Assembly: GCA_030037875.1 (NCBI GenBank)
Contig: JASHPV010000183.1
Location: 1-54,361, forward strand
Origin: Thermoplasmata archaeon
GTDB lineage: Archaea > Thermoplasmatota > Thermoplasmata > Lutacidiplasmatales > UBA184
Direction of reading: 5' to 3'
Length of the DNA: 54,361 nucleotides
The translations under genes and the position numbers were made by a program. The notes under the pieces were generated by a model. The model saw only the letters and a program-made list of their open reading frames with translations. It made no database searches and had not been told where the DNA came from. The number at the start of each line of letters is the position of its first letter. The first letter of the stretch is position 1. Positions 4,247 to 46,814 of the stretch are shown here, piece after piece.

Positions 4247-4996
4247 TCAGGGAGCAACGTGGAAGCCCGTGTCATCGATGGTCAACCGACGGATCTGGGT
4301 GCGCTCGGGGTGATTCCGGAGCTTCCGGACCTCGAGCGTGTGTTCGAAAGTGGCCCCGTTGGGGTCGGAGCGCAAGGTGATGCCGAGGTCCGCGACGTCC
4401 TCGAGCATCGCACTGGACTTGTTGTCGAGCGACGCCTGCTGCACCGTTACCATCGCCTTGCCTCCCAGGAGTTGGGTCCGGGAGCGAATCTGCCGGACCA
4501 GGTTGACCACCTCGGACACTTCGAGCAGCTCGAGGAGAAAGTCGAGCGAGTCCAGGACCAAACGGAACGGCGCATCGAGGCCCGCGAGGTCGTTCAGGAA
4601 CCGGTTCACTAGACTGTAGGGTCCGACGGAGACCTCCGCCCGGCGAGCGTTCCGGAGGTCGTCCAACCGGAGCCCCCGTTCCCGGATCCTAGAGACCTCG
4701 AGCTGGGGCTCCAGTACGCGCTGGTAGTAATCATCGGAAAGGTTCCCGAAGCGGATCGGCTCCGGATCCCAGTGAAAGGAGCGGAACGCGTCCTGCGAAT
4801 CGATCGTACGTTCGGCGGTAGTGTAGTAGAACACGGGCGTCGAGCCGACCCCGGCTTGGGCGAACTGTTTCGCCAGGAGGTGGGAGCCGGACCCAGGCGT
4901 GCCGATAACCACGATGAGGCAGCCGGGAGGCAGGTAAGGAGAGAGGGCGGCGTCGATATCGGGAATGCCCATGAGCGGCTCGTCCCCGGTCGTCAC
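4247..4996 (-). CDS. RAD55/KaiC-like ATPase-fold protein with degenerate Walker A
   Basis: GIPDID, GTPGSGSH (Lys lost), LVLDSL Walker B, VRKLRN motif. Confidence 0.8.
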   Translation of the reverse strand: MTTGDEPLMGIPDIDAALSPYLPPGCLIVVIGTPGSGSHLLAKQFAQAGVGSTPVFYYTTAERTIDSQDAFRSFHWDPEPIRFGNLSDDYYQRVLEPQLEVSRIRERGLRLDDLRNARRAEVSVGPYSLVNRFLNDLAGLDAPFRLVLDSLDFLLELLEVSEVVNLVRQIRSRTQLLGGKAMVTVQQASLDNKSSAMLEDVADLGITLRSDPNGATFEHTLEVRKLRNHPERTQIRRLTIDDTGFHVAP

Positions 4997-5577
4997 GAGC
5001 TGCCCCCGAGCGTGAACGATTCGTCGACCACGAGGGCGAGGATCCGGTCGAGCTCGGTTCCCTCGGTCTCCGAGGTGGAGAACAGGACGGTGAGCACCGA
5101 TCGCGTCTTCAGGTTGTTCACGAGGATATGGAAGAACTCCGACAGGACCTCCGGGGCGTTGTGGACGGCCAGGGAATTCACCGAGTCAATGATGACCATG
5201 TTGCGCTGGCTAGGGTGCCTCCGGAGCAGGTACTCGATCCGAAGCATGATCCCCTCGAGCATGGTGGGGCTCTCCACGTACGAGGCGTTGGGCAGGGTGT
5301 CCTGGTAGCTCATCATCAGGTGAGAAATGGCGTCCACGAAGGAGAGCCGGGTGGAGGGGATGTCGAGCGCCTGCAGCAGACTCCAGACGAGCGAAGCGGG
5401 ATTCGTCACCGAGACGTAAATCGTGTGCGAGTTCGTCTCGCCCCCGAGGTCACGGACCGTGAGGCCGAGCGCCGCCAGATAATTGTCCGCGTAATCCCGC
5501 GCGCCCAGTCGGAGGGCCACCGTCCCACCGCTGGTGAACGACCGCAGCCGGTCGGCTATCTCGGATTCGCGGGCCAT
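4993..5577 (-). CDS. Inactive RecA/KaiC-fold protein (DUF7504/DUF835-like)
   Basis: IYVSVTNP, FVDAIS, VIIDSVNSL..HN; no Walker A; 4-nt overlap with the downstream gene. Confidence 0.7.
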   Translation of the reverse strand: MARESEIADRLRSFTSGGTVALRLGARDYADNYLAALGLTVRDLGGETNSHTIYVSVTNPASLVWSLLQALDIPSTRLSFVDAISHLMMSYQDTLPNASYVESPTMLEGIMLRIEYLLRRHPSQRNMVIIDSVNSLAVHNAPEVLSEFFHILVNNLKTRSVLTVLFSTSETEGTELDRILALVVDESFTLGGSS

Positions 5578-5581
5578 GAGC

Positions 5582-6370
5582 CTAGGCAGTCTCCAATCGG
5601 CCGCCTTTGAGGAACGGCGCCATGAGCAGGCCGATCGGCGTGAGCTCGATGACGTACTGGGCCCGCGAGTGAACGGTTCCCCGCATCTTGATGATCTGCA
5701 GCACGCGCAGCATGTCGCCCCGGCGACGAACGTTCGAGAGCATCACGACCCCGTCGACAATCGCTTCTTCCACCCCATACAGCGAGTGGACGCCCGGTAC
5801 CGCCCCCACCTCGGCGACCATCAACGACGTGGTGCCGAGCTCCGAGAACGCCTGGGCCAACTTGAGGATGAAATCTCGGGCCTTCTCCTCGCTCCGAACC
5901 CGGAACCCCACCGAGGTTAGGGAATCCACGACGACGCGCCGGGCCCCGCTCTCCCGGACAAGGTCTTGAATCGTGCGAACCAGGATGTCCACCTCACCGG
6001 GCTTGAGTTCCTCTCGGTTGAGACCGAGACGGTCGTAGACTATCGGGAGGTCCACGATGGTGACCAGGTTGTTGTTCACGAGATCGGTGTGGAAGAACTC
6101 GAAGGTGCTGAAGTTCTGCATGAGTTTGGCCGACGCTTCGGTCACAGAGATGAAGAGTCCCTTCTCGCCCCGTTCCGCGCCCCGGACGAGGAACTCGAGG
6201 CAGAGCGTCGTCTTGCCCGTGCCGACACCCCCGGCCACGAGCACCATGTTCGCGCGCGGGATTCCACCCCCGAGAATGTTGTCGAGGCCCTCGATACCAG
6301 TGACACATCGGTCCGCCAGTGCGTCTGTGGAGGGAGTCGTCGCCGGCGGGCCGGGGCGTGTTCCGCTCAC
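5582..6370 (-). CDS. Single-domain KaiC-like ATPase
   Basis: TGIEGLD..LGGG.P, Walker A GGVGTGKT, VVVDSL, IIKMRGT.HS. Start placed at GTG 6370, just downstream of an AT-rich TTTTAG element at ~6393-6398. Confidence 0.9.
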   Translation of the reverse strand: MSGTRPGPPATTPSTDALADRCVTGIEGLDNILGGGIPRANMVLVAGGVGTGKTTLCLEFLVRGAERGEKGLFISVTEASAKLMQNFSTFEFFHTDLVNNNLVTIVDLPIVYDRLGLNREELKPGEVDILVRTIQDLVRESGARRVVVDSLTSVGFRVRSEEKARDFILKLAQAFSELGTTSLMVAEVGAVPGVHSLYGVEEAIVDGVVMLSNVRRRGDMLRVLQIIKMRGTVHSRAQYVIELTPIGLLMAPFLKGGRLETA

Positions 6371-21279: not shown

Positions 21280-21564
21280 ATGCACTACCCTAAGGTCATC
21301 TCGACCTACTGTCCTCGGTGCCACAAGCACACCCCGCACGACGTCGAGAAAGGAAAGAAGAAGCCGGCGTCCGAGCTCAAGTGGGGCCAACGGCGGTTCC
21401 GACGCGCCACCGGCGGTTACGGCGGGTTTCCCCGGCCGAAGCCCGAGGGGCGCGCCAAGGCCGTCCGGCGGGTCCTTCTGAGGTTCCGTTGCAAGCAGTG
21501 CAAGTACATCGTCCAGCCCGTCGGCTGGCGGGCTAGCACGTTCGAGCTGACCGAGGCGGAGTGA
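21280..21564 (+). CDS. rpl44e: 50S ribosomal protein L44e
   Basis: TYCP.C.KHT.H, GYGGFPRP, L...C..C. Confidence 0.96.
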   Translation: MHYPKVISTYCPRCHKHTPHDVEKGKKKPASELKWGQRRFRRATGGYGGFPRPKPEGRAKAVRRVLLRFRCKQCKYIVQPVGWRASTFELTEAE

Positions 21565-21749
21565 GTGCTCGTTCCATGACTGCCGCTCCGTTCTGGGTCG
21601 TCAAGTGTCCAGACTGCTCGGGAGAGCAGACGATCTTCAGCCGCCCCGCCACGACGGTCAACTGCGTGGTCTGCGGCGCCACGTTGGCCACTCCGACCGG
21701 CGGCAAGGCGCAACTTCGCGGAACGTTCGTTCGACCGGCATCGGCCTAG
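21561..21749 (+). CDS. rps27e: 30S ribosomal protein S27e
   Basis: VKCPDC..EQ.IF...V.C.VCG..LA.PTGGKA. Confidence 0.95.
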   Translation: MSARSMTAAPFWVVKCPDCSGEQTIFSRPATTVNCVVCGATLATPTGGKAQLRGTFVRPASA

Positions 21750-34933: not shown

Positions 34934-35009
34934 ACTTCAGCCGGCGTCGCGGTTCCTCAGGCGGTCTTAAGCTCGGCTTTTTAGGGTCCCGTTGCCCCTT
35001 CGCGGCGGT

Positions 35010-36365
35010 ATGGCGAGAAAGCGAGTCGTTGTCATGGGCGCAGCGGGCCGAGATTTTCACAATTTCAACGTCCTCTACCGGGGCCATCCGGAGTATGAGG
35101 TGGTCGCCTTCACCGCAACGCAGATTCCGAACATCGCCGGGCGAATCTATCCGGCGGTGCTCGCGGGTCCCGAGTACCCGAACGGGATCCCTATTCTCCC
35201 GGAAGAGGAACTTCCGGACCTCGTCCGGAAGCAGAGCGTAGACCTGGTGCTCCTGGCCTACTCGGACCTGCCCGAAGTCGAGGTCATGCACAAGGGCTCG
35301 ATCGCTCTCGCCGCCGGCGCCAGCTTCCTTCTCGCGGGCCCTAAGGAAACAATGCTGAGGTCGACCAAGCCGGTACTGAGCGTCTGCGCGGTCCGCACAG
35401 GGGCTGGCAAGAGCCCGCTGACTCGTTTCGTCTCCCGGTACCTGCGCTCGCGCGGATTCCGGGTGGCGATCGTACGTCACCCGATGCCGTACGGCGATCT
35501 AGCCGCGCAAGCCGTCCAACGCTTCGCGAAGCTCGAGGATCTCGACACCGCTCACTGTACCATCGAGGAACGAGAGGAGTACGAACCCCACCTCCGAGAT
35601 GGGGCGGTCGTGTTCGCCGGTGTCGATTATGAGGCAATCCTGCGACGCGCTGAGCCGGAAGCCGACGTCATCCTCTGGGACGGCGGTAACAACGATTTTT
35701 CGTTTTACCGGCCCGATCTCCAGATCGTTGTAGCGGACCCCCACCGGCCCGGTCACGAGCTTTCGTACTACCCCGGGGAGGTAAATTTCAGAATGGCGGA
35801 TGTGATTGTCGTCAGCAAGACCGACTCGGCGCTCCCTCAGAACGTGGCTTCCATTGAGGCCAACGCCGCCCGGGTCAATCCCCAGGCCGAGGTCGTTCGC
35901 GGTGCCCTGGAGTTGACCGCCGATCAACCGGAACGGCTTCGAGGCCGACGCGTACTGGTGATCGAGGACGGGCCCACCATCACCCACGGCGGCATGGCCT
36001 ACGGCGCCGGCACCTTACTGGCGCGGGCCCAGGGTGCTGTCATCGTCGATGCCCAGCCGTTCGCGGTCGGGAGCATTGCCCGCGTGTACGAGCAGTACCC
36101 ACACCTCAAGAGCATCCTTCCTGCGATGGGGTACAGTGCGGAACAGGTCCGGGAACTGGAGGAAACGATTCGACGGTCCGATGCGGAGTTCGTTGTGGAC
36201 GGGAGTCCCGTCAACTTGAGCCACCTGGTCCACGTCGACGTCCCACTGGTGAATGTGACATACCTGTACGAGGACCTGGACGGCCGGATGGCTAGGGTGC
36301 TGGAGCGGTTCGCCCTGCAGTACCTCACGTCCGCCCGTCCAGGGTCGGCCCGGACCGCCGGGTAG
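35010..36365 (+). CDS. arcE: Arginine synthetase ArcE-like protein (cDPG-synthetase-related P-loop family)
   Basis: GAAGRDFHNFN, VVAFTATQIP.I.GR.YP, AVRTGAGKS, RHPMPYGDL, CTIEEREEYE, WDGGNND, EDGPT.THGGM. Confidence 0.75.
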   Translation: MARKRVVVMGAAGRDFHNFNVLYRGHPEYEVVAFTATQIPNIAGRIYPAVLAGPEYPNGIPILPEEELPDLVRKQSVDLVLLAYSDLPEVEVMHKGSIALAAGASFLLAGPKETMLRSTKPVLSVCAVRTGAGKSPLTRFVSRYLRSRGFRVAIVRHPMPYGDLAAQAVQRFAKLEDLDTAHCTIEEREEYEPHLRDGAVVFAGVDYEAILRRAEPEADVILWDGGNNDFSFYRPDLQIVVADPHRPGHELSYYPGEVNFRMADVIVVSKTDSALPQNVASIEANAARVNPQAEVVRGALELTADQPERLRGRRVLVIEDGPTITHGGMAYGAGTLLARAQGAVIVDAQPFAVGSIARVYEQYPHLKSILPAMGYSAEQVRELEETIRRSDAEFVVDGSPVNLSHLVHVDVPLVNVTYLYEDLDGRMARVLERFALQYLTSARPGSARTAG

Positions 36366-36492: not shown

Positions 36493-37014
36493 ATGAGATT
36501 CTCCCACTTGATCCCCATACTCATCGGAGTGGCAATCCTCCTCTTCGGAATCTATCTGGTCTCGACCAACGGGTATCTCGACGGAAAGTACCTTCCGAGC
36601 TTCATCGGGATTCAGCCGTGCAGCTCCGGTTCGCCGAGCTCGCCGCTCAACGGCACTGGGTGCACGGGGTTCGGGGCCTTCGAAGGCTTCGGCGTCGGCA
36701 CGATCGTGTGCATCTCTGGACTCGGGATCATAGGGGGTTCTCTCCGTCGAGGATTCTCGTCATCGGCCGCTGGCTCGACCGCTCTGACCCCTGAAGCCCT
36801 CTCCGCGCTCGTCCAGGGCCAAAGTCGGTTGCAGGCGGCTCCGGGGGCAATTGCTCCGGGTCCGCGATTGGGGACGGTTTACTGTTCCACTTGTGGTGCG
36901 GCCAATCCTTCGGAGGCCAAGTTTTGCCACCAATGCGCGACCGCGATGCCGGGCGCTGCCCCACTGGCCCAGCCTGCCGCACCGCCCTCCGTTCCTCCCG
37001 GGGCGGGGGGCTAA
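36493..37014 (+). CDS. Membrane protein with C-terminal zinc ribbon
   Basis: Two TM segments with a Cys-pair loop; YCSTCGAAN...AKFCHQC. Confidence 0.75.
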   Translation: MRFSHLIPILIGVAILLFGIYLVSTNGYLDGKYLPSFIGIQPCSSGSPSSPLNGTGCTGFGAFEGFGVGTIVCISGLGIIGGSLRRGFSSSAAGSTALTPEALSALVQGQSRLQAAPGAIAPGPRLGTVYCSTCGAANPSEAKFCHQCATAMPGAAPLAQPAAPPSVPPGAGG

Positions 37015-37070
37015 CCGGCCGCTCGACCCTTGGCGCTAAATTTCCGCGCGTATCCGAAGGGGACGATTCC

Positions 37071-37607
37071 ATGGGACTTTCTCTATCGGAGATCACGTTC
37101 ATCCTCAGTGCCATCAGCTCGACGGCGGTCATCGCGGGCGCGTTTTTCATCGTCTTTCAGTTGCGCCAGAACGCGAAGCTGATCGAGGCCACTCTGGCCC
37201 AGAATCGGAACGATGCGGCGTTCAACATCCTGGACCGGCTGACGCAAGAGGGGACCGGGCGTCGCCGGAAACAGCTCCGCGACGTCTCCACGCGACATGT
37301 CAAGGAGGGCTGGGACGGATTCATCGGGAGCCTCGAGGCGTACGAGGTGAGCGGTTTCGCGTACCAGTACGAATTGATCGGCCAGTTCGTCCGCGAGGGT
37401 ATCGTCGACCTCGACCTCGTCACTCACATGCTGAGCTACCTGATCGTCTCGGACTGGCTTCAGTTCCGGCCGATCGCGGACTATCTCAACATCCAGTTCG
37501 GAACGAAGGTCAGCCCGTGGATCCATTTCCAGTGGCTCGCGGAAAAGTGCCGGCAGCATTTGGACTCCCCTGCCCACGACGCCGAGGCGCCCATCATCGG
37601 CACCTGA
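37071..37607 (+). CDS. DUF4760-like membrane-anchored protein
   Basis: N-terminal TM then QLRQ; YE..G..V..G..D; W.HF.WLA. Confidence 0.6.
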   Translation: MGLSLSEITFILSAISSTAVIAGAFFIVFQLRQNAKLIEATLAQNRNDAAFNILDRLTQEGTGRRRKQLRDVSTRHVKEGWDGFIGSLEAYEVSGFAYQYELIGQFVREGIVDLDLVTHMLSYLIVSDWLQFRPIADYLNIQFGTKVSPWIHFQWLAEKCRQHLDSPAHDAEAPIIGT

Positions 37608-37636
37608 GCGCCCGGAGGCGCGGCGTTCGGTCCGGC

Positions 37637-40600
37637 TCAAGTGGGAGCGACGGGGAAGGCGACCTTCAACATCTCAACCTCTCCCGGGGTCAAAAGTCGA
37701 GGGTTGACCGGCACCCACACCGCGGTCCCGGAGGCCTGGGCTCGCACGTGCAGCTCCCGGAGCAGTTTCAACACGGGCGCCAGCGTGTTGACCGTGACGA
37801 GGTACTCGAAGCCTTCGAGCAGCACCGCACTGACGTGGCCCTCTCCCAGCGCACTAACGAAGAGCGTCTCGAGCGCCGCGACGTCGCTTGGCCGCACCGA
37901 GTTCTGACGCCCGACATTGGAGAGCCAGATCACGGTGATGTCCCGAGTTCCGATGCGCCGGCGGAGCCGGTCCGGAAACTCTCGCGTGACGCAAAGACCC
38001 CGGCGGCCGACCGACACGGCATCGAGGAATCGGCTCCAGGCCGCGTCCGTGGTGTCCTCGACGAGGAGTTCGATGCCTTGATGGAGCAAGGACGTCGGCG
38101 CAGGTGCCGCTTCGGCCACGTCCGCGGACACGGGCGGTTTCCACGGGGGAAGCGGAACGGCTTCGGGTCGGGGAGCCGGCGGAGCCACTGCGCGGATCAC
38201 GGGAGGGGTCGCTGCGGGACCCGCGCGCGGGAGGGCGGGAGTGGAGACACTCGGCAGAGTCGGGACCGAGGCACTGGGAGACGCCGAGGAGATCGGTTCG
38301 GGCACCGTCGGTTCTGGGAGAGACTCCGGGGGCGCAGCCTCCGGTTCGGGAGCGGGCTCCGGCTCGGGAGGCTCAACGCGCGGGGGAGGCCAGACCCAGA
38401 TACGGTCCGGGACCGCTCCTCCGAAGTGGCGGACCACCTCCCGGGCGAGATACGGTCCGAATCCGGGCACGGTGACCAGCTTCTCGTACGGCGCGTGGGA
38501 AAGGGACTCGAAATCTGTGAATCCCGCGTCCCAGGCGGCGGCGAGCTTGGTGACACCCAAGTAGGGTGCGCCGACGGCCTGGTCGAGTTGCTCCAGCGTA
38601 CCGTGGAGGGTCGTCTCCCGGTTCCGTACCTCCTCACTCAAGAAATCCGGACCCTCGGACTCCACCGGTTCGAAGCGTACGGCCTGGCGCCCCCGTCGGC
38701 CAAGATGCCGGGAAACGCGGGCCTTGCGCCGTCCCACCGGTCGTGGGAGGCCCGGTACCCAGATCCGCCATCGCGTGCCGACCGCGGTCCGGCCATTCGT
38801 GGTCTCTCCAGGGATGAACCGCGTCCCGCTCGACACCGCCTCAAAGCGAGGTACGCGAAGAGACTGTGCAATCGCCACGGCATGGCTTCGGAGCTCCTCC
38901 TCGAGCGCCGGAGGCGCCTCGACCCAAACCTCCGTGATGTTCGAACCCGCCGGCGCGGAGGTCAGTCGTCGACGCGCCGAACGCACTACGCGGTACGCGT
39001 CGGGACCTAGCCCTAACATTAGGTCGAGCGCGGCGGAGCTGGTTCCTTGGGGGAGCTTGAGATACAGCTCTCCCTGGGGCGCCGGCAGCACCATCATCCC
39101 GGGAGGGAGCGCGTCGATCAGTTCGACCATCGACGGGAGCAGCTGTACGGGGCTCGCGCCGAGCACAACGCTGAGCGTCTGATTCCGCAGCGCCTCCTTG
39201 ACCCTCTTCCCGGGCATCTGAGAGACCAACGTGGCGATCCGCCCGGCGCTCGCCCGATAGACGCGCTGGAGCTCGGCCAGGTTCGGTTCGACGCGGATCT
39301 GGCGGCCTTCCCACGGGCGGGCCGGTGAGGCGATCTCGATGCTCTCGGTTGGAAGCACGCGCGTGAGAACGGGCAGCAGGGCCTGGAGTTCCGCGGCGAC
39401 CGCCTCGTCGCGCGCATTGACCACGACGCTGGCCCACCGAATCGAACGCGGCAACGACAGCCGGTGACGGGCCCGCTCGACGGCCAGGGCGATCGGAACG
39501 AGTCGGTCCAGCAGCTTCTCGGAGGCCGGATCGACGAGACTCTGTCGGACCGGGGCAAGCGGCGCCTCGAACAGGCTCCGGGCGTCGTCCCGAAGGGAAC
39601 GGTCGATGGCCTCCATGGTGAAGGGAGCGAAGGGGGCCCACAGCTGTGCGAGCCCAGACACCACGTAGACCAGCACTCGTTCAGCGGCCGTTTTGCCGGG
39701 GCTTTGAGCGGCCTCATCGAGGCGGCTTCGAGCGATCAGCAGGTACTGCTCCCGGAGGTCGTGGTCGGCGAACCGGGTGATGCGGTCGAGCGTTTGGGGG
39801 AACCGCCCCGCGGCCAATCCCGCCAGCGCGTCGGCCCGAAACCGTTCGAAGCGGGACACGAAGGCCCGGTCCTCTTCGGGCAACGAATCTCGGACCCGGG
39901 CGAGGGACTGGTCCCCGAGCGGAAGGCCGTCCCGAGCGAGGCTTCCGGAGAGCTGGTACGCCACTCGCCAAAATCTCCGTAGGTGCCGCACATCCTCGGC
40001 CACTACGGACGCGAGGGGGGAGGCAGCCCGGCGTCGGGTGGCCATCCGAACGAGAGCGCAGCGGACCGCGTCGACGGGAGCGGCCGGGTCCACGCGAGCC
40101 GAGGCCTCGTCCACGGAACCGGTCGGCACGAGGATGAGGCGAGTGTCGGCCGGACGCGCGGACGCCGCGAACTGGCCGACGAGGTGGGTCAACAGCAGTG
40201 GCCCCCTCCGCTGTTCGGGCAATAGCAGTCCGACCCCATTGTCCGTGGGAAATGGGTTCATGCGGGCCCATCGGTAGAGCGCCTCATTGAACACCGGAAG
40301 CAGACGCCGCCGTACTTCGACTCGAACGCCTCCACAGGAGCATTTGGGACCCGTCCCCGCCGGTGCGAGCCGTGAGCAGCTTCCACACTCTTGGAGGGCC
40401 GGGTACGCGGGGTCCTCGGTGGTCCGTGCGTCGGTCGCCGGCCAAGGCACCACCTCCGACGCCAAGGGTAGCGCCTCCCCGGGCAGAAGCTGCTTGAAAA
40501 GGTACAACGTTTCGGCGTCGATCCGGTCCGGTTCCAGCCTCCACGCCCGGCCGGGCCTCCAGAAGAGACCGGTCCCGCAGTCCCCGCACCGCGGAACTCC

Positions 40601-41686
40601 GTGCCGGACGCGCAACTGAGCGAAGATGAGGGCACCGTCGTTCAGATCCCGCAGGATGAACGCCTCGGCGGTATCCACGGGGAGGCCCTGGTACTTGTGT
40701 GCCGATTGTCCTTCCAATCTCCCGTTAGCCGAGAGGACCGGCCATCCCGGGATCTCGAGTTTTTCGGCGATGCGCGCGTCCGACGCCCCGTGTGCCGGGG
40801 TCAAGGTGACGATGCCGGTACCGCTGTCTCCCACCTCGACCGACGTCTGGAGGAGCCCTCCCGGGCTGAGCAACGAGTAGAGTGGAGGGTACTCCGAGCC
40901 CAAGGGATGGACGTACGCCCGACCCTGCCAGGAGGCGCCGGGGTGCTCCTCGAGCACCTCGATCTCGGAATCGGGGAGCCACGCCCGGAGACGGTCCAAG
41001 CTGGATTTGCTGGTGAGAACCCTCTCTTCCGACCCCCGCCGGGTGAATTTTGCGATAACGTACGGCAGGGTCGGATTCAGGAGCACCGCCGTCGTGCCGA
41101 GAAGTTTCCAGGCCGAGTCCGTCCACACCAACGCGTCGACCCGGGGCTCGGTGTCGCGCAGGGCGAACCGGACGAGGTAAGCGGGACCCTCCTCGTCCAC
41201 GTAAACGAGGTTCGCAGGTCCCTTCGGCTCGCGGCAACGAGGACACCAACGGAGCGGGCCTTCCTTGGCGACCAGGACATTGGTCTCGGCCAACCGGCCA
41301 AGCATCCCATCCACGATCGTGGTGAGCTCCGGACGGACCGTCGGTTCCAGCGCACCATGGCCGTACCAGAGTCCCAACCCCTCCCACTGGGCCGCGGCCG
41401 TGGGGGGCACGCCCTCGCCGGGTCGGGTCCCGAACAGGACCGGTCCCGTGGCGGTTCGCTCGAGGAGAAGCTGCGCCCGCGCGGCCACGTCGGCGAGCAG
41501 CCCTCGCTGGAGCAACGGGAGAGGAACCTCCCCCCGAGACGGAATCCCGCCGATGGAGAGGTGCGTCGGAGGCCCCCCGCGATCCGGCCGGTCGTCCGGC
41601 CCCGGCGGCAGCCCCCGCCCCGACCAGAGCTCCCGGGCCTCGCTCTCGACCGCGTGGGGATCCAATACTGGGGCCAACGCGCGCAA
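37637..41686 (-). CDS. Degenerate isoleucyl-tRNA synthetase paralog fused to HhH, Pro-rich linker and DUF835
   Basis: Collinear IleRS landmarks (WCPRC, LVWT..W.L, GTGIV...PAHG..D, P.C..C.T.L, DR...SR, APF.PF..E); HIGH and KMSKS absent; C-terminal GLC.TR.FP..W.S...LLEG.EYL...N. Confidence 0.85.
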   Translation of the reverse strand: MRALAPVLDPHAVESEARELWSGRGLPPGPDDRPDRGGPPTHLSIGGIPSRGEVPLPLLQRGLLADVAARAQLLLERTATGPVLFGTRPGEGVPPTAAAQWEGLGLWYGHGALEPTVRPELTTIVDGMLGRLAETNVLVAKEGPLRWCPRCREPKGPANLVYVDEEGPAYLVRFALRDTEPRVDALVWTDSAWKLLGTTAVLLNPTLPYVIAKFTRRGSEERVLTSKSSLDRLRAWLPDSEIEVLEEHPGASWQGRAYVHPLGSEYPPLYSLLSPGGLLQTSVEVGDSGTGIVTLTPAHGASDARIAEKLEIPGWPVLSANGRLEGQSAHKYQGLPVDTAEAFILRDLNDGALIFAQLRVRHGVPRCGDCGTGLFWRPGRAWRLEPDRIDAETLYLFKQLLPGEALPLASEVVPWPATDARTTEDPAYPALQECGSCSRLAPAGTGPKCSCGGVRVEVRRRLLPVFNEALYRWARMNPFPTDNGVGLLLPEQRRGPLLLTHLVGQFAASARPADTRLILVPTGSVDEASARVDPAAPVDAVRCALVRMATRRRAASPLASVVAEDVRHLRRFWRVAYQLSGSLARDGLPLGDQSLARVRDSLPEEDRAFVSRFERFRADALAGLAAGRFPQTLDRITRFADHDLREQYLLIARSRLDEAAQSPGKTAAERVLVYVVSGLAQLWAPFAPFTMEAIDRSLRDDARSLFEAPLAPVRQSLVDPASEKLLDRLVPIALAVERARHRLSLPRSIRWASVVVNARDEAVAAELQALLPVLTRVLPTESIEIASPARPWEGRQIRVEPNLAELQRVYRASAGRIATLVSQMPGKRVKEALRNQTLSVVLGASPVQLLPSMVELIDALPPGMMVLPAPQGELYLKLPQGTSSAALDLMLGLGPDAYRVVRSARRRLTSAPAGSNITEVWVEAPPALEEELRSHAVAIAQSLRVPRFEAVSSGTRFIPGETTNGRTAVGTRWRIWVPGLPRPVGRRKARVSRHLGRRGRQAVRFEPVESEGPDFLSEEVRNRETTLHGTLEQLDQAVGAPYLGVTKLAAAWDAGFTDFESLSHAPYEKLVTVPGFGPYLAREVVRHFGGAVPDRIWVWPPPRVEPPEPEPAPEPEAAPPESLPEPTVPEPISSASPSASVPTLPSVSTPALPRAGPAATPPVIRAVAPPAPRPEAVPLPPWKPPVSADVAEAAPAPTSLLHQGIELLVEDTTDAAWSRFLDAVSVGRRGLCVTREFPDRLRRRIGTRDITVIWLSNVGRQNSVRPSDVAALETLFVSALGEGHVSAVLLEGFEYLVTVNTLAPVLKLLRELHVRAQASGTAVWVPVNPRLLTPGEVEMLKVAFPVAPT

Positions 41687-41834
41687 GGTACTGCCCGGAC
41701 GCTCCGAGATGCTCCGGCGAGAATGATGCGCGGTCGCGAACCTTAAGGATTGCTGGCAACGGTCGAGTGCCCGGGCTGCGCGTCACCGACAACTCTTATC
41801 ATTCGGCTCGCGTCCGCGGCGTCGGGGCAACGAA

Positions 41835-42221
41835 ATGGCGTGGACGACGGCCGAGGTCCGGGAACTCAAGGAGGGCCGGTACCTCCTCCTGGATGACGAA
41901 CCGTGCCGGATCCTCTCGATCCAAACCTCCAAACCGGGGAAGCACGGGGAAGCGAAGGCGCGCATCGATGCGGTGGGGATATTCGATGGCGCCAAGCGCA
42001 GCGTAGTGTTCCCGGTCAAGCACAAGGTCCAGGTGCCGATGATCGGCAAGCACCAGGCCCAGGTGCTCTCGCTCACGGGCTCGGAGGTCCAGCTAATGGA
42101 CCTCGAGACGTACGAGACATTCTCCCTGACGTTGGAACCCGACCAGAAGGGCGAACTCACCCCGGGCACCGAGGTCCAATACCTCGACGCGATGGGAAAG
42201 CGTCGCATCACCCGGAACTGA
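41835..42221 (+). CDS. eif5a: Translation factor aIF5A
   Basis: [13 protein letters not shown] hypusine loop; [11 protein letters not shown]. Confidence 0.97.
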
Positions 42222-42269: not shown

Positions 42270-42350
42270 GCGGACCGTCCATCATTTTCGATGCGGGGTG
42301 CCTAGCCGTCCGGCAAGGGTCCGCGTCGCTTGGGGGATCGAGGGTTCGGC

Positions 42351-45300
42351 ATGGCAGGACTCGGCTCGCTTTCCTCCTCCCGGCTCACCAAGTTGCTCCA
42401 AGAAAAAGCGGAGCAGCTCAAGAAACGGCGCGAAACGGCCGAAGCCGTCTTCAACGAGATCGAGGCTCGAGCGGAGCTCCTCTCCGCGGTCGGAGTGACC
42501 CTCCCCGACCTCGCCAGCAAGATTCCACCCCTGCGCGAGCTGCAACGAAAGGCCGACTGGGAGGCCCTCGAGACCCAGGCGAAGAGCGTCCTGGCCGAGA
42601 TGGAACAGGCGGCGCGGGAGCCCGTCGAAGAACGGCAAGCCGCCTTGGTGAAGCGCGCAGACCGTGTCGCTCTCGTGGGGAATCCCCTCCCCGCCGAGGC
42701 CCGGGCCTTGCTGGACGAGGTGGGACCCAAGATCCGCGAAGGGCAGTGGCGAGAGGCGTTCGAGCGGTTGGCCGCGATCGAGGAGGCTCTCGCCGGCCTC
42801 GAAAAGGCATACGAGACCAGCCTGTCGGACCGGGTTCGTTCCTTCGTTCGATGGGCGACGGGTGACGACGCCGTTCCACCCGCGCTGGAGACCGAGGTCC
42901 AACCGGTTCTCGCGGACTTGAAGGGCGCGAACCCGGAACCGGCTCAGAAGCAACTCGCCGAGATTCTGGAGCGGGAATTCCCTCAAGCCGTCGAGCGGCG
43001 CACCGGGGTACGCGAGAGCGCGGAAAGAGCTGTCCCTGCGGCCCGTGAGCTGGGCGCTTCCACGGGGGGTATCGAAGCCGCGCTCGAGGCGGACAAGCGC
43101 TCGTTCATCCTGGATTGGCCCCAGAGCGTCACGTTGGTCGAGCAGGCGATCGAGGGCCTCCAAACCATCCTGAGGGACCGCGTGGCCTCGACGATCGGCT
43201 CCCTCCGAGACACCCTGGAGTCGCTTCGAACGCAGGGCGTCGACCCCAACGAAGCGCTCGCATCTCTGGAACAGATATCCGCCCAACTGAGCACCGCGAA
43301 GAGCTACGACCTGCCGGGACTGGTGGCCACCGCCCGGGAAGCCGCCGAGGGACCCGTCGTTGCTGTCGTGGCTGGGGTGCTCGACGAAGTGCGGCCCCGG
43401 TTGGTCGAGGCCAGGCGCCTGGGCCGTGATCCGAGTGACGTCTTCGCCGCGATGAATCGCGCCCGGGAGGCATTGCGCCTCCGGATCTACGGGGAGGCCA
43501 TCGCGGCCAGTCAGGAGGCGCTCGAACGGGTCAGTACCCTCATCCAGGACATCGAGGGGGTTCGTTCGGAGGCGGAGTCGGTACGCGACATGCTGTCCCG
43601 GCTAGCGAAAAATGGCTTCGCGACGGCTCCGTTCGATGCGCAGATCACCCGCTCGCTCCAGGCGCTCGACCTCGGCGACCTCTCCGGGGCTCGTCGGCTG
43701 CTCCAGGAATCGATTTCCTCGCTGGGCCGAGATGCGGTGGCGCATTTCCAGGGCCGATTGACCAATCTCTCCCAATCTGTCGCCATCGCCAAGGAACGGG
43801 GGTTCCTGCCCCCGGAGGTCGAGGCCGCGGAGCAACAGGCACGCGTGGCGCTCGACGGGGGACGGCTCGCGGACGCCGGAGCGCTGCTCGGACAGATCGA
43901 TGCGGACCTGCGGGCCGCCGCCGCACCGTACATGTCTCGCCGACTCGAGGAGATGGAGAAAGGGCTCGCCGAGATCCCCGAGGAACAAGCGGTGACCCCC
44001 GTCCGCTCCTCGATGGCGGACGCCGACGTGAACCTCCGAGTCAAGGAGGACCTGTCCGCCTCCCTAGACTGCCTTCGGCGGGCCGAGCGGGAATTCTCTG
44101 CGGTCTTCGCGGCGCGTGCCTCGTCGCTCGTCGAGGCCCTAGCGCAGGAACGCCGGGTTCTGGAGGAGATGGGAGGGACGGGCGATGCGATCCAGCGGGA
44201 GATCGACGAAGTCGAGCAGATCTTCAACATGGGCGACTTCGTCAAGGCCTCGAGGGCCGCCCAGGAGATCCGGACGCGGACCCTTCAGCAGCAGCTCGTT
44301 CGTAGCGAAGAGGCCGTTTCTCACGCGAAGCTGGCGCTAATCGAACTGGAGACAATGGGGCTCGATGTCTCTGCTCTTCGGACGGATCTCGAACTGGCCC
44401 AAGAGGCGGCCCGGAGTTCGAAGCATGCCGAAGCTTTCAAGGTCTCCGAGGCCACCGCCTCCACGGCCCGGAAACTCAAGACCGAAGCCCAGGAAGTCCT
44501 GGACCTGTTGGCCGAGACGGGGGAGCAGCACGCGGCCCTCGCCAAGCTGGGCCAGTCCGTCGAGGAGTACCGCGCGTCCGTTCAGGAAGCCAAGCAGGCG
44601 TACCAGTCGCTCGACTTTCCCCATGCCCGGGCCGTTCTCGCGCAACTCCGCGAGGAGCTGCAGAGCACGAGTCTGCGGACGGAGGCGGTCCGGCTACTCG
44701 CGGAGGCCAAGCTGGTCGTGGAGGACGGTCGCCGTCTCTCGGTTCCGATGGATGCCGCCATGGAACGGGTGGGTCACGTATCCAAGCTGTTGGAGGAAGG
44801 CCATCTCCGCGAGGCCGCGGCCGAGATTCGGTCCGTGCACGCCGAGCTCATCTCGCTGGTACGGCCGGTGCTGGAAGAGAACCTGCGAGCGGTGGAGAGC
44901 GACGCCGATACGGCCCGCGGCATCGGCCTCGACGTGGCAGCGGTGGCCGCGACGCTCGGGGAGGCGCGGCGTCGACTCAGCCAGCCCGTGCCGACCGGCG
45001 TGGCGCCGCTGATCGAGAGTGCCCGTTCCCAGTTCTTCGAGAGCCGGGGATTCCTGGAGCATTCCGACCGTGTGCTGCGGCGAGCCTCGGACGCACTCAA
45101 TCAGGCGGAACTGGTCCGCGTCGACGTGGCCCAGCCGCGCGAGCGACTCCGGAAGGTCCAAGAACTGATTGGCCAACGGGAGTACCCGAGGGCGATCGAG
45201 CAAGCGTCGTCCCTCGAACGGGAGCTCACCCAGGCCACGACCCAGCAGGTGTCCCGGTCGCTGGCCGGATTCCAGGGCCTGGTCGCTCGGGCCCGACAGC

Positions 45301-46814
45301 AAGGGGTCGACACAACCCTGGCAGAGAATTTCCTCCAGCAGGCGCGCGCGGCGCTCGACAATTCGCAACCGATCGAGGCCCTCCAGCTCGCGGCCCGGGC
45401 CGAGAGCGAAATCGAACGGGTCGAACTCCAGCACTCCATCGCCCAGGGCTCCCTCGAGACGATGGAACGAAAGCTGAGCGCGGCGGAGAAGGACGGCGTC
45501 GTCGCTCCCGCCGCCTCGGAGGAACTCGGCCGGGCCCGCACCGCGTTCGCGCGGCACGACTACGTCGAGGTTCTCGAGATGACACTGGCCACGTCCGACT
45601 CGCTCGCCATCGCCCGGGAGTACCACCGACGAGCCATGGAAGCGATCGAGGTGGCCGACCGGCACGTCAAGGAGGCCGGACATCTCTCGGCGGAGGTCTC
45701 CGAAGCCGCCGCCACATTGGCCTCGGCACGCGAGCTGGCGACCGCGGGCCAGTACGTGGACGCGATCCGGCGCGCTCGGGAGGGGTCCGAGAAAGCGCGT
45801 TGGGCCACCGAACGTCTCTACTCCGGCGGACTCGAAGAGGCCCGCCGGCTGCTTGAACTCGCCCAACGATGGGTACCCGATGCGGCACCCCAGATCGCTA
45901 CTAATGTGGACGACGCCGAAGCCGCGCTTAAGGCTCGTGAGTGGAACCGGGTCACCGACCGACTTCGCCGCGCGCGCGAGCTCGCCGACCTCTCGCTCGG
46001 AGGCGCGCTGGACGCCCGTCAGGACACCCTGCGTGGGCAGTACGATCGCATCCTCGGCGTCGATGCCGCCGAGAAGGATCGCCGCGCCGAGGTACTGCGC
46101 CGGCTTTCGGAGCTACGGGGCCGGCATGCCTATACCGACGCCTTCGAAACCGCTCGAGAGGAGGAGACGCGCCTCGCCGATACCCGCGTGACGGAACTGC
46201 GCCGCCGGACGAAGGACCTCGAGGATAGCCTCCTCGTCGGCGAGAAGCTCGGCCTCGACACCACGCCGGTCATGCAGCTGTTCAGCGAGGCGAAGATCGC
46301 CCTGCAGGCCGGGAAGGTCGATCCGGTGGGAGCCCTGCTCGACAAGGCGATGGCGCTCCTGGGCACCATCGTGAAGCCCCGCGTGTCGGACAAGCTGCGG
46401 GACGTCCGCGCCGAGTACGTGTTCGCCCGGGACGGTCTCAACGTGAACCTCGGAACCGTCGGGGAGATCCTGGATGGAATCCCCCGCCTCGTCGAACGTG
46501 GGGAGCTCGTGGATGCGGCCCGGATGCTGCTGAGCTGCGAGGAGCAGGTCAACCAGCGGAAGGCGCAGCAGCGCGAATTGACGAACCTGCACTATCTCGT
46601 CGACGCCGCCCTGTCCCAGGCCCGGGAAAAGGGCTTGGACACCACGAAGGCCCAGGAGTTGCTGTCGGCCTCGATACAGGCGCGGAGCACGGATTATGGC
46701 GTGGCGCTCGAAAAGGCCCGACAGGCCCATGAGACGCTCAAGGCCCTGCTGAAGCCCCCGGAGGCGCCCAGCACGTTCTGGCCGTTCCGTCGCGCTCCCG
46801 GGAGCGGGACCTAG
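42351..46814 (+). CDS. Large all-alpha helical-repeat/coiled-coil protein (~1487 aa)
   Basis: A/E/L/R-rich, recurrent xG(V/L)D turn, no Walker motifs, no TM. Confidence 0.85.
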   Translation: MAGLGSLSSSRLTKLLQEKAEQLKKRRETAEAVFNEIEARAELLSAVGVTLPDLASKIPPLRELQRKADWEALETQAKSVLAEMEQAAREPVEERQAALVKRADRVALVGNPLPAEARALLDEVGPKIREGQWREAFERLAAIEEALAGLEKAYETSLSDRVRSFVRWATGDDAVPPALETEVQPVLADLKGANPEPAQKQLAEILEREFPQAVERRTGVRESAERAVPAARELGASTGGIEAALEADKRSFILDWPQSVTLVEQAIEGLQTILRDRVASTIGSLRDTLESLRTQGVDPNEALASLEQISAQLSTAKSYDLPGLVATAREAAEGPVVAVVAGVLDEVRPRLVEARRLGRDPSDVFAAMNRAREALRLRIYGEAIAASQEALERVSTLIQDIEGVRSEAESVRDMLSRLAKNGFATAPFDAQITRSLQALDLGDLSGARRLLQESISSLGRDAVAHFQGRLTNLSQSVAIAKERGFLPPEVEAAEQQARVALDGGRLADAGALLGQIDADLRAAAAPYMSRRLEEMEKGLAEIPEEQAVTPVRSSMADADVNLRVKEDLSASLDCLRRAEREFSAVFAARASSLVEALAQERRVLEEMGGTGDAIQREIDEVEQIFNMGDFVKASRAAQEIRTRTLQQQLVRSEEAVSHAKLALIELETMGLDVSALRTDLELAQEAARSSKHAEAFKVSEATASTARKLKTEAQEVLDLLAETGEQHAALAKLGQSVEEYRASVQEAKQAYQSLDFPHARAVLAQLREELQSTSLRTEAVRLLAEAKLVVEDGRRLSVPMDAAMERVGHVSKLLEEGHLREAAAEIRSVHAELISLVRPVLEENLRAVESDADTARGIGLDVAAVAATLGEARRRLSQPVPTGVAPLIESARSQFFESRGFLEHSDRVLRRASDALNQAELVRVDVAQPRERLRKVQELIGQREYPRAIEQASSLERELTQATTQQVSRSLAGFQGLVARARQQGVDTTLAENFLQQARAALDNSQPIEALQLAARAESEIERVELQHSIAQGSLETMERKLSAAEKDGVVAPAASEELGRARTAFARHDYVEVLEMTLATSDSLAIAREYHRRAMEAIEVADRHVKEAGHLSAEVSEAAATLASARELATAGQYVDAIRRAREGSEKARWATERLYSGGLEEARRLLELAQRWVPDAAPQIATNVDDAEAALKAREWNRVTDRLRRARELADLSLGGALDARQDTLRGQYDRILGVDAAEKDRRAEVLRRLSELRGRHAYTDAFETAREEETRLADTRVTELRRRTKDLEDSLLVGEKLGLDTTPVMQLFSEAKIALQAGKVDPVGALLDKAMALLGTIVKPRVSDKLRDVRAEYVFARDGLNVNLGTVGEILDGIPRLVERGELVDAARMLLSCEEQVNQRKAQQRELTNLHYLVDAALSQAREKGLDTTKAQELLSASIQARSTDYGVALEKARQAHETLKALLKPPEAPSTFWPFRRAPGSGT

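Follow-up and report, generated by a model that had tools for sequence, protein, structure and literature searches.

A gene in a 54,361-nucleotide stretch of DNA from a Thermoplasmata archaeon (assembly GCA_030037875.1, contig JASHPV010000183.1; the whole stretch is called the window here) is predicted to encode a CATALYTICALLY dead paralog of isoleucyl-tRNA synthetase (IleRS), in which five motifs of the synthetic site are gone and which continues into a helix-hairpin-helix (HhH) module, a linker and a DUF835 domain. The gene (P0001, 37637..41686 on the minus strand, stop included) has 1349 codons and a TTG start. Judging from related genomes, it is the terminal member of a series of IleRS-HhH-DUF835 fusions that runs from intact to dead enzymes. 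This wider family, whose intact members appear to be the sole IleRS of some genomes, had been missed by the original prediction, an earlier note made from the letters of the window. We propose, with a probability of roughly 0.45, that the pseudo-enzyme arose by subfunctionalisation of a bifunctional IleRS-HhH-DUF835 ancestor and would now serve as a non-catalytic receptor of tRNA(Ile) status that signals via DUF835.

In alignments to canonical IleRS, the HIGH position of the window protein reads VPLPL, inside GGIPSRGEVPLPLLQ. Alignment to the canonical enzyme of the same genome and to other IleRS revealed that GWDxHG and the KMSKS loop are deleted, that WxDSG has become VFNEA and that DQxRGW has become EQRRG-P. 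HIGH and KMSKS are missing in all 37 aligned members of the window's protein family, and GWDxHG, WxDSG and DQxRGW in each of the 15 family sequences inspected for those motifs. WTTTPWT has turned into WTDSAWK, with a family-wide pattern of W[TV]D..W[KR]LLGT. The protein keeps the cysteines of the zinc knuckle (C148/C151/C367/C370) and of a second cluster (C434/C437/C449/C451), both clusters being invariant or nearly so with the canonical IleRS included, and a D539-x2-R542 motif in residues 396-600. Its editing-type domain, CP1, retains the GTG loop (289-291) and the Asp of HG..D303 (HGASD). All motif readings of the original prediction (altered HIGH, absent KMSKS, WTDSAWK, the zinc-binding cysteines and the last Asp of GTG...HGASD) were thus reproduced. 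A class Ia CP1 editing site consists of a Thr-rich motif, an editing His and a conserved Asp; in the window protein just D303 is left of these three, plus the GTG loop, and the editing His and the Thr-rich motif are replaced in 37 of 37 aligned family members.

The NCBIfam model TIGR00392 (ileS) scored the protein at 115.8 bits against an equivalog cut-off of 621.4 (valS, 95.4 bits), and a genome scan with the same model returned the gene as two pieces of 75.9 and 45 bits. Three marks of a functional IleRS are lacking, namely a score above the TIGR00392 cut-off, HIGH/KMSKS and GWDxHG/WxDSG/DQxRGW. The multi-domain fold of an IleRS, with CP1, zinc knuckles and anticodon-binding domain, is present. 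The five lost motifs and the low score bear out the earlier view of an aminoacylation-dead paralog.

The window gene is not the sole ileS of its genome, as charging is done by a separate canonical IleRS on contig C151 (997 aa; 781.8 bits with TIGR00392), which has HLGS, WTTTPWT and KMSKS and a complete editing site. Each of the 8 remaining genus members also has a stand-alone IleRS. An aragorn search of the incomplete metagenome-assembled genome (MAG) found 25 tRNAs and no tRNA-Ile. A 1465-aa frame around the valyl-tRNA synthetase (ValRS) on C101 turned out to be an ordinary ValRS with an open but non-coding stretch ahead of it.

Residues 1-1100 were modeled with AlphaFold2 on a 52-row alignment (mean predicted local distance difference test score, pLDDT, 86.5; predicted TM-score, pTM, 0.77). 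The top Foldseek match of the model in the Protein Data Bank (PDB) was 8c9d, a type 2 IleRS from Priestia megaterium (E = 6.9e-50, TM 0.58/0.62), followed by yeast IleRS-tRNA complexes (8z1p, 8wnd) and T. thermophilus IleRS (1ile, 8.9e-35). ValRS (1gax, 1.2e-30) and leucyl-tRNA synthetase (LeuRS; <=1e-22) ranked below the IleRS structures. Alignments to IleRS2 (8c8v/8c9d) and to the yeast complex 8wnd covered ~1107 columns, the C-terminal tRNA-binding domain included. Since IleRS ranks first over the full length, we regard the body as a complete IleRS scaffold, in line with the near full-length scaffold described before. In a phmmer search of PDB sequences, IleRS chains were again on top (9w01_B, 3.5e-18; 1ile_A, 4.5e-17), matching residues ~104-388 (CP1 and zinc knuckle) and 600-838 (anticodon domain). 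We conclude from sequence and model that the protein derives from IleRS and not from ValRS or LeuRS.

All segments of the body lie on the minus strand. By alignments and the AlphaFold2 model, residues 1-145 (41252..41686) are what remains of the first Rossmann half, the part that held HIGH and GWDxHG. CP1 (residues 146-395; 40502..41251) sits inside the CxxC...CxxC zinc knuckle, as delimited by phmmer and alignments, and is followed by what is left of the catalytic core's second half, with the second Cys cluster (residues 396-600; 39887..40501), assigned from alignments and with a loop of low pLDDT at 521-530. The helical anticodon-binding domain (residues 601-830; 39197..39886) persists, as had been claimed: Pfam Anticodon_1 matches residues 606-750 (E = 2.1e-12), the domain matches positions 693-934 of IleRS chains and the AlphaFold2 model agrees. 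Residues 831-985 (38732..39196) form a beta-rich C-terminal domain of the archaeal/eukaryal-type (type 2) IleRS, as seen by AlphaFold2 and Foldseek. Though this region is DUF5915-like, DUF5915 had no Pfam match in the window protein; it was detected in intact IleRS-DUF835 fusions. Likewise, tRNA-synt_1 had no Pfam match in the window protein at E<=0.1.

The body is joined to the tail by a strongly basic disordered linker (residues 986-1017; 38636..38731; net charge +5, pI 11.8), in which pLDDT is <50 at 988-1012. The tail consists of a five-helix HhH module with a PGFG hairpin (residues 1018-1095; 38402..38635), a disordered Pro-rich linker that is the fastest-evolving part of the protein (residues 1096-1198; 38093..38401; 31% Pro over 1096-1205) and DUF835 (residues 1199-1349; 37640..38092), an alpha/beta domain of the KaiC/FlaH/RecA type that has no Walker A. 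Pfam DUF835 (PF05763) matches residues 1221-1342 (E = 2.8e-17, 63.2 bits against a gathering cut-off of 33.1; 68.8 bits in the genome scan). The HhH module was recognized in the AlphaFold2 model, the Pfam match of HHH_2 at 1048-1088 being weak and under the cut-off (E = 0.011); HHH_5 was matched strongly in related fusions. The order of HhH, Pro-rich linker and DUF835 given in the original prediction is thereby supported.

A separate AlphaFold2 model of residues 1010-1349 (pLDDT 84.3) likewise showed the five-helix HhH, the disordered Pro-rich linker and a compact alpha/beta domain. By VIA-align, DUF835 resembles FlaH/ArlH (4yds; Z 13.3, root-mean-square deviation (rmsd) 2.9 Å over 142 residues), the CII domain of KaiC (8dba; Z 13.3) and the archaeal KaiC-like proteins PH0284 (Z 12.2) and PH0186 (Z 11.3), and Foldseek matched the tail to Dmc1, FlaH, RadA and KaiC. 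A Walker A motif ([AG]xxxxGK[ST]) was found in the last 190 residues of 0 of 108 fusion proteins. On the basis of these models and alignments, DUF835 has a KaiC-like fold without P-loop. This agrees with PMC5847659, where DUF835 is termed 'iKaiC' and treated as the inactivated, KaiC-like output part of response regulators in archaea, and upholds the inactive KaiC-like domain of the original prediction. The motifs G..G.C.TR.[FY]P..[LIV]R and WLSN occur in the tails of dead and intact fusions alike. Complex prediction for two DUF835 copies scored 0.05 against a mark of 0.42, which weighs neither way.

An exhaustive HMMER search with residues 1-1000 as query yielded 1061 proteins at E<=1e-3. A second tier of matches, at 19-27% identity, comprised long proteins of 1228-2329 aa. 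Seventeen of 20 scanned second-tier proteins combine tRNA-synt_1, Anticodon_1 and DUF835, most of them also with DUF5915 and HhH and some with zinc ribbons or tetratricopeptide repeats; the remaining three were one without a DUF835 match, one unrelated phosphatase insertion and one ordinary IleRS. The tRNA-synt_1 scores of the second-tier fusions range from 445 down to 61 bits.

In all, 41 related genomes were scanned with TIGR00392, and Pfam and motif tables were then compiled for the fusion open reading frames (ORFs). Four genomes (G031, G032, G034 and G037), which belong to four families and are 78-95% complete, have no IleRS over the cut-off other than the fusion (908-984 bits), and in each of them the eight catalytic and editing motifs are intact and DUF835 is present. 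One genome (G033) carries an intact fusion (980 bits) alongside a stand-alone IleRS (837 bits), and another (G036, 74% complete) an apparently intact fusion split over two contigs. In all other fusion-bearing genomes a stand-alone IleRS over the cut-off coexists and the fusion is decayed, the DUF835 tail always being kept. The fusion of G038 (747 bits) is without HIGH and KMSKS, and those of G025, G027 and G029 (two at 712 bits and one at 705) keep HIGH and GFDMHG and have lost KMSKS, the Thr-rich motif and the editing His. Every synthetic motif is gone from the fusions of G039 (463 bits), G040 (335), G026 (308) and G028 (257), and the window's family has the lowest score of the series (~76 bits). 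What is new here is that intact IleRS-DUF835 fusions are the only IleRS found in four related genomes and that the fusion is decayed wherever a stand-alone IleRS coexists, except in G033. Subfunctionalisation predicts such a pattern, as catalysis would be dispensable in the fusion once another IleRS exists and tail and body would be retained. NCBI annotates the intact fusions as 'isoleucine--tRNA ligase' and lists the dead ones under 'class I tRNA ligase family protein' or 'DUF835 domain-containing protein', names that mask the common tail and the loss of activity.

A single quick tree, inferred by maximum likelihood from 43 rows and 972 columns with ValRS as outgroup and of no better than unrooted quality, gathers all stand-alone IleRS from genomes with two copies in one clade (99*), with the fusion-type enzymes outside. 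The ORFs of the window's family entered the tree as the longest ORF per locus, since phmmer with canonical IleRS missed them at E<=1e-5. Decayed fusions occupy three places: the f2 clade, G038, and a fully dead clade that includes the window's family (96*), so that the partial decay in f2 and G038 is placed apart from the dead clade. The sole IleRS of G035 (L041, G035:C25; a 1005-aa frame, 938.8 bits) is tailless and falls inside the fusion-type clade beside the G037 fusion (97*); either its tail was lost from a former fusion, or it is a pre-fusion relic. ORFs of ~1050 aa with weak matches to the DUF835 region in genera g3 and g4 were rejected as further-decayed IleRS-like copies, as they are P-loop (GPAGIGKS) ATPases.

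The ORF of the window gene is a single unbroken frame with zero internal stops, as originally read. Its TTG start position is shared with the orthologs of the genus, one of which has ATG there, and the 32 in-frame codons 5' of it drift almost neutrally (dN/dS 0.2-0.95), so the start call is sound. A 7590-bp contig from another sample covers 37400-41957 with 10 differences. Since this independent contig spans the gene and 64 of 71 protein clusters share Anticodon_1 and DUF835, the fusion is not a misassembly. The 20 contigs listed as carrying the sequence come from peat and soil metagenomes, none of them RNA-derived.

The clusters come from a homologue search with 74 matches, 71 of which are members of the window's family (35-84% identity); the other three are ordinary IleRS (E 1e-7 to 1e-9). 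Family members are mostly 1326-1880 aa long, all organism-named ones are Thermoplasmata MAGs, and the seven clusters without DUF835 are short or flagged as partial by their source. The protein Atlas search returned nothing outside the family's own cluster. Among the 41 related genomes, orthologs were found in all nine of the genus (two split at contig ends), in five of six from two further genera of the same taxonomic family (in G017 none was found with the query used) and in 0 of 10 from four other genera of that family.

Nei-Gojobori dN in six genus pairs was 0.094-0.191, compared to 0.073-0.158 for canonical IleRS of the same genome pairs, and protein identity was 74-85% compared to 78-88%. 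Approximate dN/dS values by domain were 0.02-0.09 for DUF835, 0.04-0.10 for CP1 and 0.20-0.30 for the Pro-rich linker. In a family alignment thinned to 82 sequences below 80% identity, 88 positions were >=95% conserved, of which 41 lie in CP1 and the zinc knuckle (16.4% of its residues) and 3 of 145 (2.1%, the lowest fraction among the body segments) in the N-terminal Rossmann remnant. By these counts and ratios, CP1 is the most conserved domain of the body and DUF835 the most constrained part overall. We conclude that the gene is evidently under purifying selection, and neutral decay, against which the original prediction had to be checked, is ruled out by the 71 clusters and by a dN comparable to that of canonical IleRS.

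In the mechanism that we propose, the dead body would bind tRNA(Ile) through its anticodon-binding and C-terminal domains. Because the synthetic pocket is gone, the 3' (CCA) end of the tRNA could enter only the conserved CP1 pocket, the sole site left, where the retained Asp (D303) is presumably the residue that anchors the aminoacyl alpha-amino group in class Ia editing sites. The flexible linker would relay to HhH-DUF835 whether the pocket is occupied and perhaps also whether the 3' end is charged. DUF835 would act as a non-ATPase KaiC-like output, comparable to that of REC/PAS-DUF835 proteins, and may contact KaiC-type ATPases or other partners. Candidate partners are encoded by three neighbouring KaiC-like ATPase ORFs (PF06745; 189.6, 51.8 and 24.3 bits) at 4250-6301 on the minus strand, ~31 kb from the gene, among ~12 KaiC-like ORFs over the Pfam cut-off in the genome. 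The tRNA half of the earlier suggestion, a sensor of tRNA or amino-acid status, is thus kept in our proposal, whereas amino-acid sensing via the synthetic pocket is unlikely, as GWDxHG and DQxRGW are deleted or replaced.

Two further DUF835 proteins were noticed. The sole other DUF835 match in the genome lies on contig C65 (G000, 21369-21587; 35.7 bits) in a 301-aa open frame. In G029, a second DUF835 protein (a 680-aa open frame, L029 8647-10686 on the plus strand) divergently adjoins the IleRS-DUF835 fusion.

Several points weigh against the tRNA(Ile) receptor. Both binding of tRNA by the body and contact between DUF835 and a KaiC ATPase are inferred. Without the Thr-rich motif and the editing His, the ligand of CP1 may differ from aminoacyl-A76, or its conservation may be structural. 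HhH motifs are more commonly DNA binders. The net charge of +19 over residues 396-1017 is above that of the canonical enzyme, with ranges that overlap across families. No conserved KaiC-like neighbour was found in the 13 wider-family loci surveyed. Overall dN/dS (~0.08-0.14) is approximate because dS is saturated (1.2-1.7). Finally, the dead clade joins long branches in the quick tree, the stem of the window's family measuring 2.88 substitutions per site, so that complete decay may have had a single origin or multiple ones.

A broader proposal, which we regard as speculative and somewhat unlikely, is that Thermoplasmata use IleRS-iKaiC fusions to sense amino-acid supply via tRNA(Ile), as a functional analogue of GCN2 or RelA. 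The ancestral working enzyme would have reported to a KaiC-type network, and after a stand-alone IleRS took over charging, the fusion would have specialised as a receptor, on no fewer than three branches of the quick tree. The former editing pocket (GTG...HG..D and W[TV]D..WKLLGT) would read whether the 3' end is aminoacylated, and the conserved divergent pairing with aIF5A in the window's lineage would couple the sensor to the control of elongation.

Signals could also flow in reverse, with DUF835 taking its input from KaiC-type ATPases and the dead body as the effector: under this control it would soak up or compete for tRNA(Ile), keep it from the canonical enzyme and thereby throttle translation. 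We consider this unlikely, although the tRNA-binding architecture is kept without catalysis, the tail is strongly constrained and, where an intact fusion is the sole IleRS, the tail could as plausibly control the enzyme as sensing could occur. To act stoichiometrically, a sponge would have to be highly expressed, and the DUF835 domains tabulated in PMC5847659 sit C-terminal to receiver and PAS domains as outputs. As to the direction of signalling itself, the present data fit either flow.

The genomic neighbourhood bears on a quite unlikely alternative, an adaptor or scaffold without tRNA sensing, whose body docks HhH-DUF835 on the translation apparatus, on a multi-synthetase assembly or on aIF5A. 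The aIF5A gene (41835..42221, plus strand; identified by Pfam) is divergently transcribed from the window gene across a 148-bp spacer, which confirms the arrangement in the original prediction. Directly 3' of it lies a gene for a 1494-aa predicted coiled-coil protein (42330-46814, plus strand) without Pfam family (best E 0.066). In 9 of 9 examined loci of the window's family, aIF5A and the N-terminus of the coiled-coil protein (34-82% identity) are kept beside the gene; three of these loci are at 35-38% protein identity, and two contig-end loci were left out. Bacterial paralogs of aminoacyl-tRNA synthetases (aaRS), PoxA/EpmA, are moreover known to act on EF-P, the homolog of aIF5A. However, neither aIF5A nor the coiled-coil gene occurs within the retrieved flanks of any of 13 loci of the wider fusion family, so the linkage is lineage-specific and not a property of the fusion, and conservation sits in the CP1 pocket motifs and not across a surface.

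It is improbable that the protein is a nucleic-acid-bound regulator, in which HhH and the basic linker bind DNA or other RNA to act on transcription or chromatin and the IleRS body senses a ligand or dimerises. The glycines and phenylalanine of the PGFG hairpin (G1075, F1076 and G1077) are >=95% conserved in the window's family, the linker of pI 11.8 lies just ahead, and HhH and DUF835 together align over 335-363 columns with Rad51/RadA, which combine an N-terminal HhH domain with a RecA core. Those full-length Rad51 alignments have an rmsd of ~19-21 Å, though, and the HhH match of the window protein is under the Pfam cut-off. Furthermore, of the four fusions that are the sole IleRS, three (G032, G034 and G037) gave no HhH match at E<=1e-5, so the module is not obligatory to the fusion.

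Even less credit is due to trans-editing, which the original prediction had offered as an option and in which CP1 would hydrolyse mischarged Val-tRNA(Ile) or another aminoacyl-tRNA in trans. As the most conserved body domain, with its GTG loop and the equivalent of the editing-site Asp, CP1 would be the expected agent, but the family-wide loss of the Thr-rich motif and the editing His, together with the complete editing site of the genome's own canonical IleRS, makes this highly improbable, and it leaves no role for DUF835, the most constrained part. A decaying pseudogene or an assembly chimera, to which the lost catalytic motifs might point, can be dismissed in view of the intact frame, the 71 clusters of the same architecture down to 35% identity, a dN like that of the essential canonical IleRS and the independent contigs that span the gene.

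The spacer between the two divergent genes (41687..41834) contains putative promoters, suggested by motif conservation within the genus. A TATA-like CTTATCA at 41795-41801 lies 34-40 nt ahead of the ATG of aIF5A and a TATA-like CCTTAAGG at 41741-41748 lies 55-62 nt ahead of the TTG start; both are conserved in the genus and may represent the promoters of the two genes. Convergent to the window gene is a gene for a DUF4760 protein (36891-37607, plus strand), adjoined by one whose product is a small membrane protein ending in a zinc ribbon (DUF7577; 36493-37014, plus strand). DUF4760 adjoins the gene in 6 of 6 genus loci and in 0 of 3 loci of other genera. A 457-aa P-loop protein (34992-36365, plus strand) has weak matches to LpxK and CobW, both under the cut-off. 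Among the 13 wider-family loci, a TrmB/MarR-like double winged-helix regulator is convergent with the fusion in four, from four different families (L032 3093-4316, L034 11083-12147, L035 2880-4031 and L039 3-461), NUDIX occurs in 2-3, and no partner is widely shared.

How archaea monitor tRNA charging or amino-acid supply is, to our knowledge, an open question, and we know of no sensor of the GCN2 or RelA type identified in Archaea. Neither are we aware of an aaRS-derived regulator with a complete class Ia IleRS as its base and a connection to archaeal KaiC-type signalling. Full-text literature searches brought up PMC5847659 alone for DUF835 and did not find an IleRS-DUF835 fusion; supplementary tables, outside the scope of these searches, might list the architecture.

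The window protein would work in a way similar to GCN2 and HisZ, an analogy of function without relatedness to either. The HisRS-like domain of GCN2 is aminoacylation-inactive, aaRS-derived and fused to a signalling module, and is thought to report tRNA charging. The window protein likewise unites an inactive aaRS-derived domain and a signalling module in one polypeptide. GCN2, however, is eukaryotic, with a class II HisRS-derived domain and a protein kinase (eIF2alpha) as output, whereas the window protein combines a class Ia IleRS body, a putative tRNA binder, with a KaiC-like domain that lacks a P-loop. HisZ, an inactive HisRS paralog and regulatory subunit of ATP-phosphoribosyltransferase, is comparable as an inactive aaRS paralog retained for regulation beside an active synthetase. 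It keeps its amino-acid pocket and senses histidine, while the window protein has lost the pocket for amino acid and ATP and retains the domains on the tRNA side. With REC/PAS-DUF835 proteins, whose distribution includes Thermoplasmata according to PMC5847659, the window protein has in common a C-terminal DUF835 after an N-terminal input module. Its input module differs in being a whole IleRS body, a combination that goes unmentioned in the consulted passages of PMC5847659.

Compared to canonical type 2 IleRS, the window protein has the same multi-domain fold, with CP1, zinc knuckles and the helical anticodon-binding and C-terminal tRNA-binding domains, but it is without the five synthetic motifs and the Thr/His editing residues and adds a 350-residue HhH-linker-DUF835 part. 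The intact Thermoplasmata IleRS-(DUF5915)-HhH-DUF835 fusions resemble it in domain order, in tail motifs and in their place on the fusion-type side of the IleRS tree; they differ in keeping the catalytic and editing motifs and in not lying beside aIF5A. Together, these proteins would form a natural series that starts with a working enzyme carrying a signalling tail, passes through copies in partial decay and ends with a fully dead receptor. How a pseudo-enzyme originates can therefore be compared directly across living lineages, and the series suggests a link between tRNA status and archaeal KaiC-type signalling.

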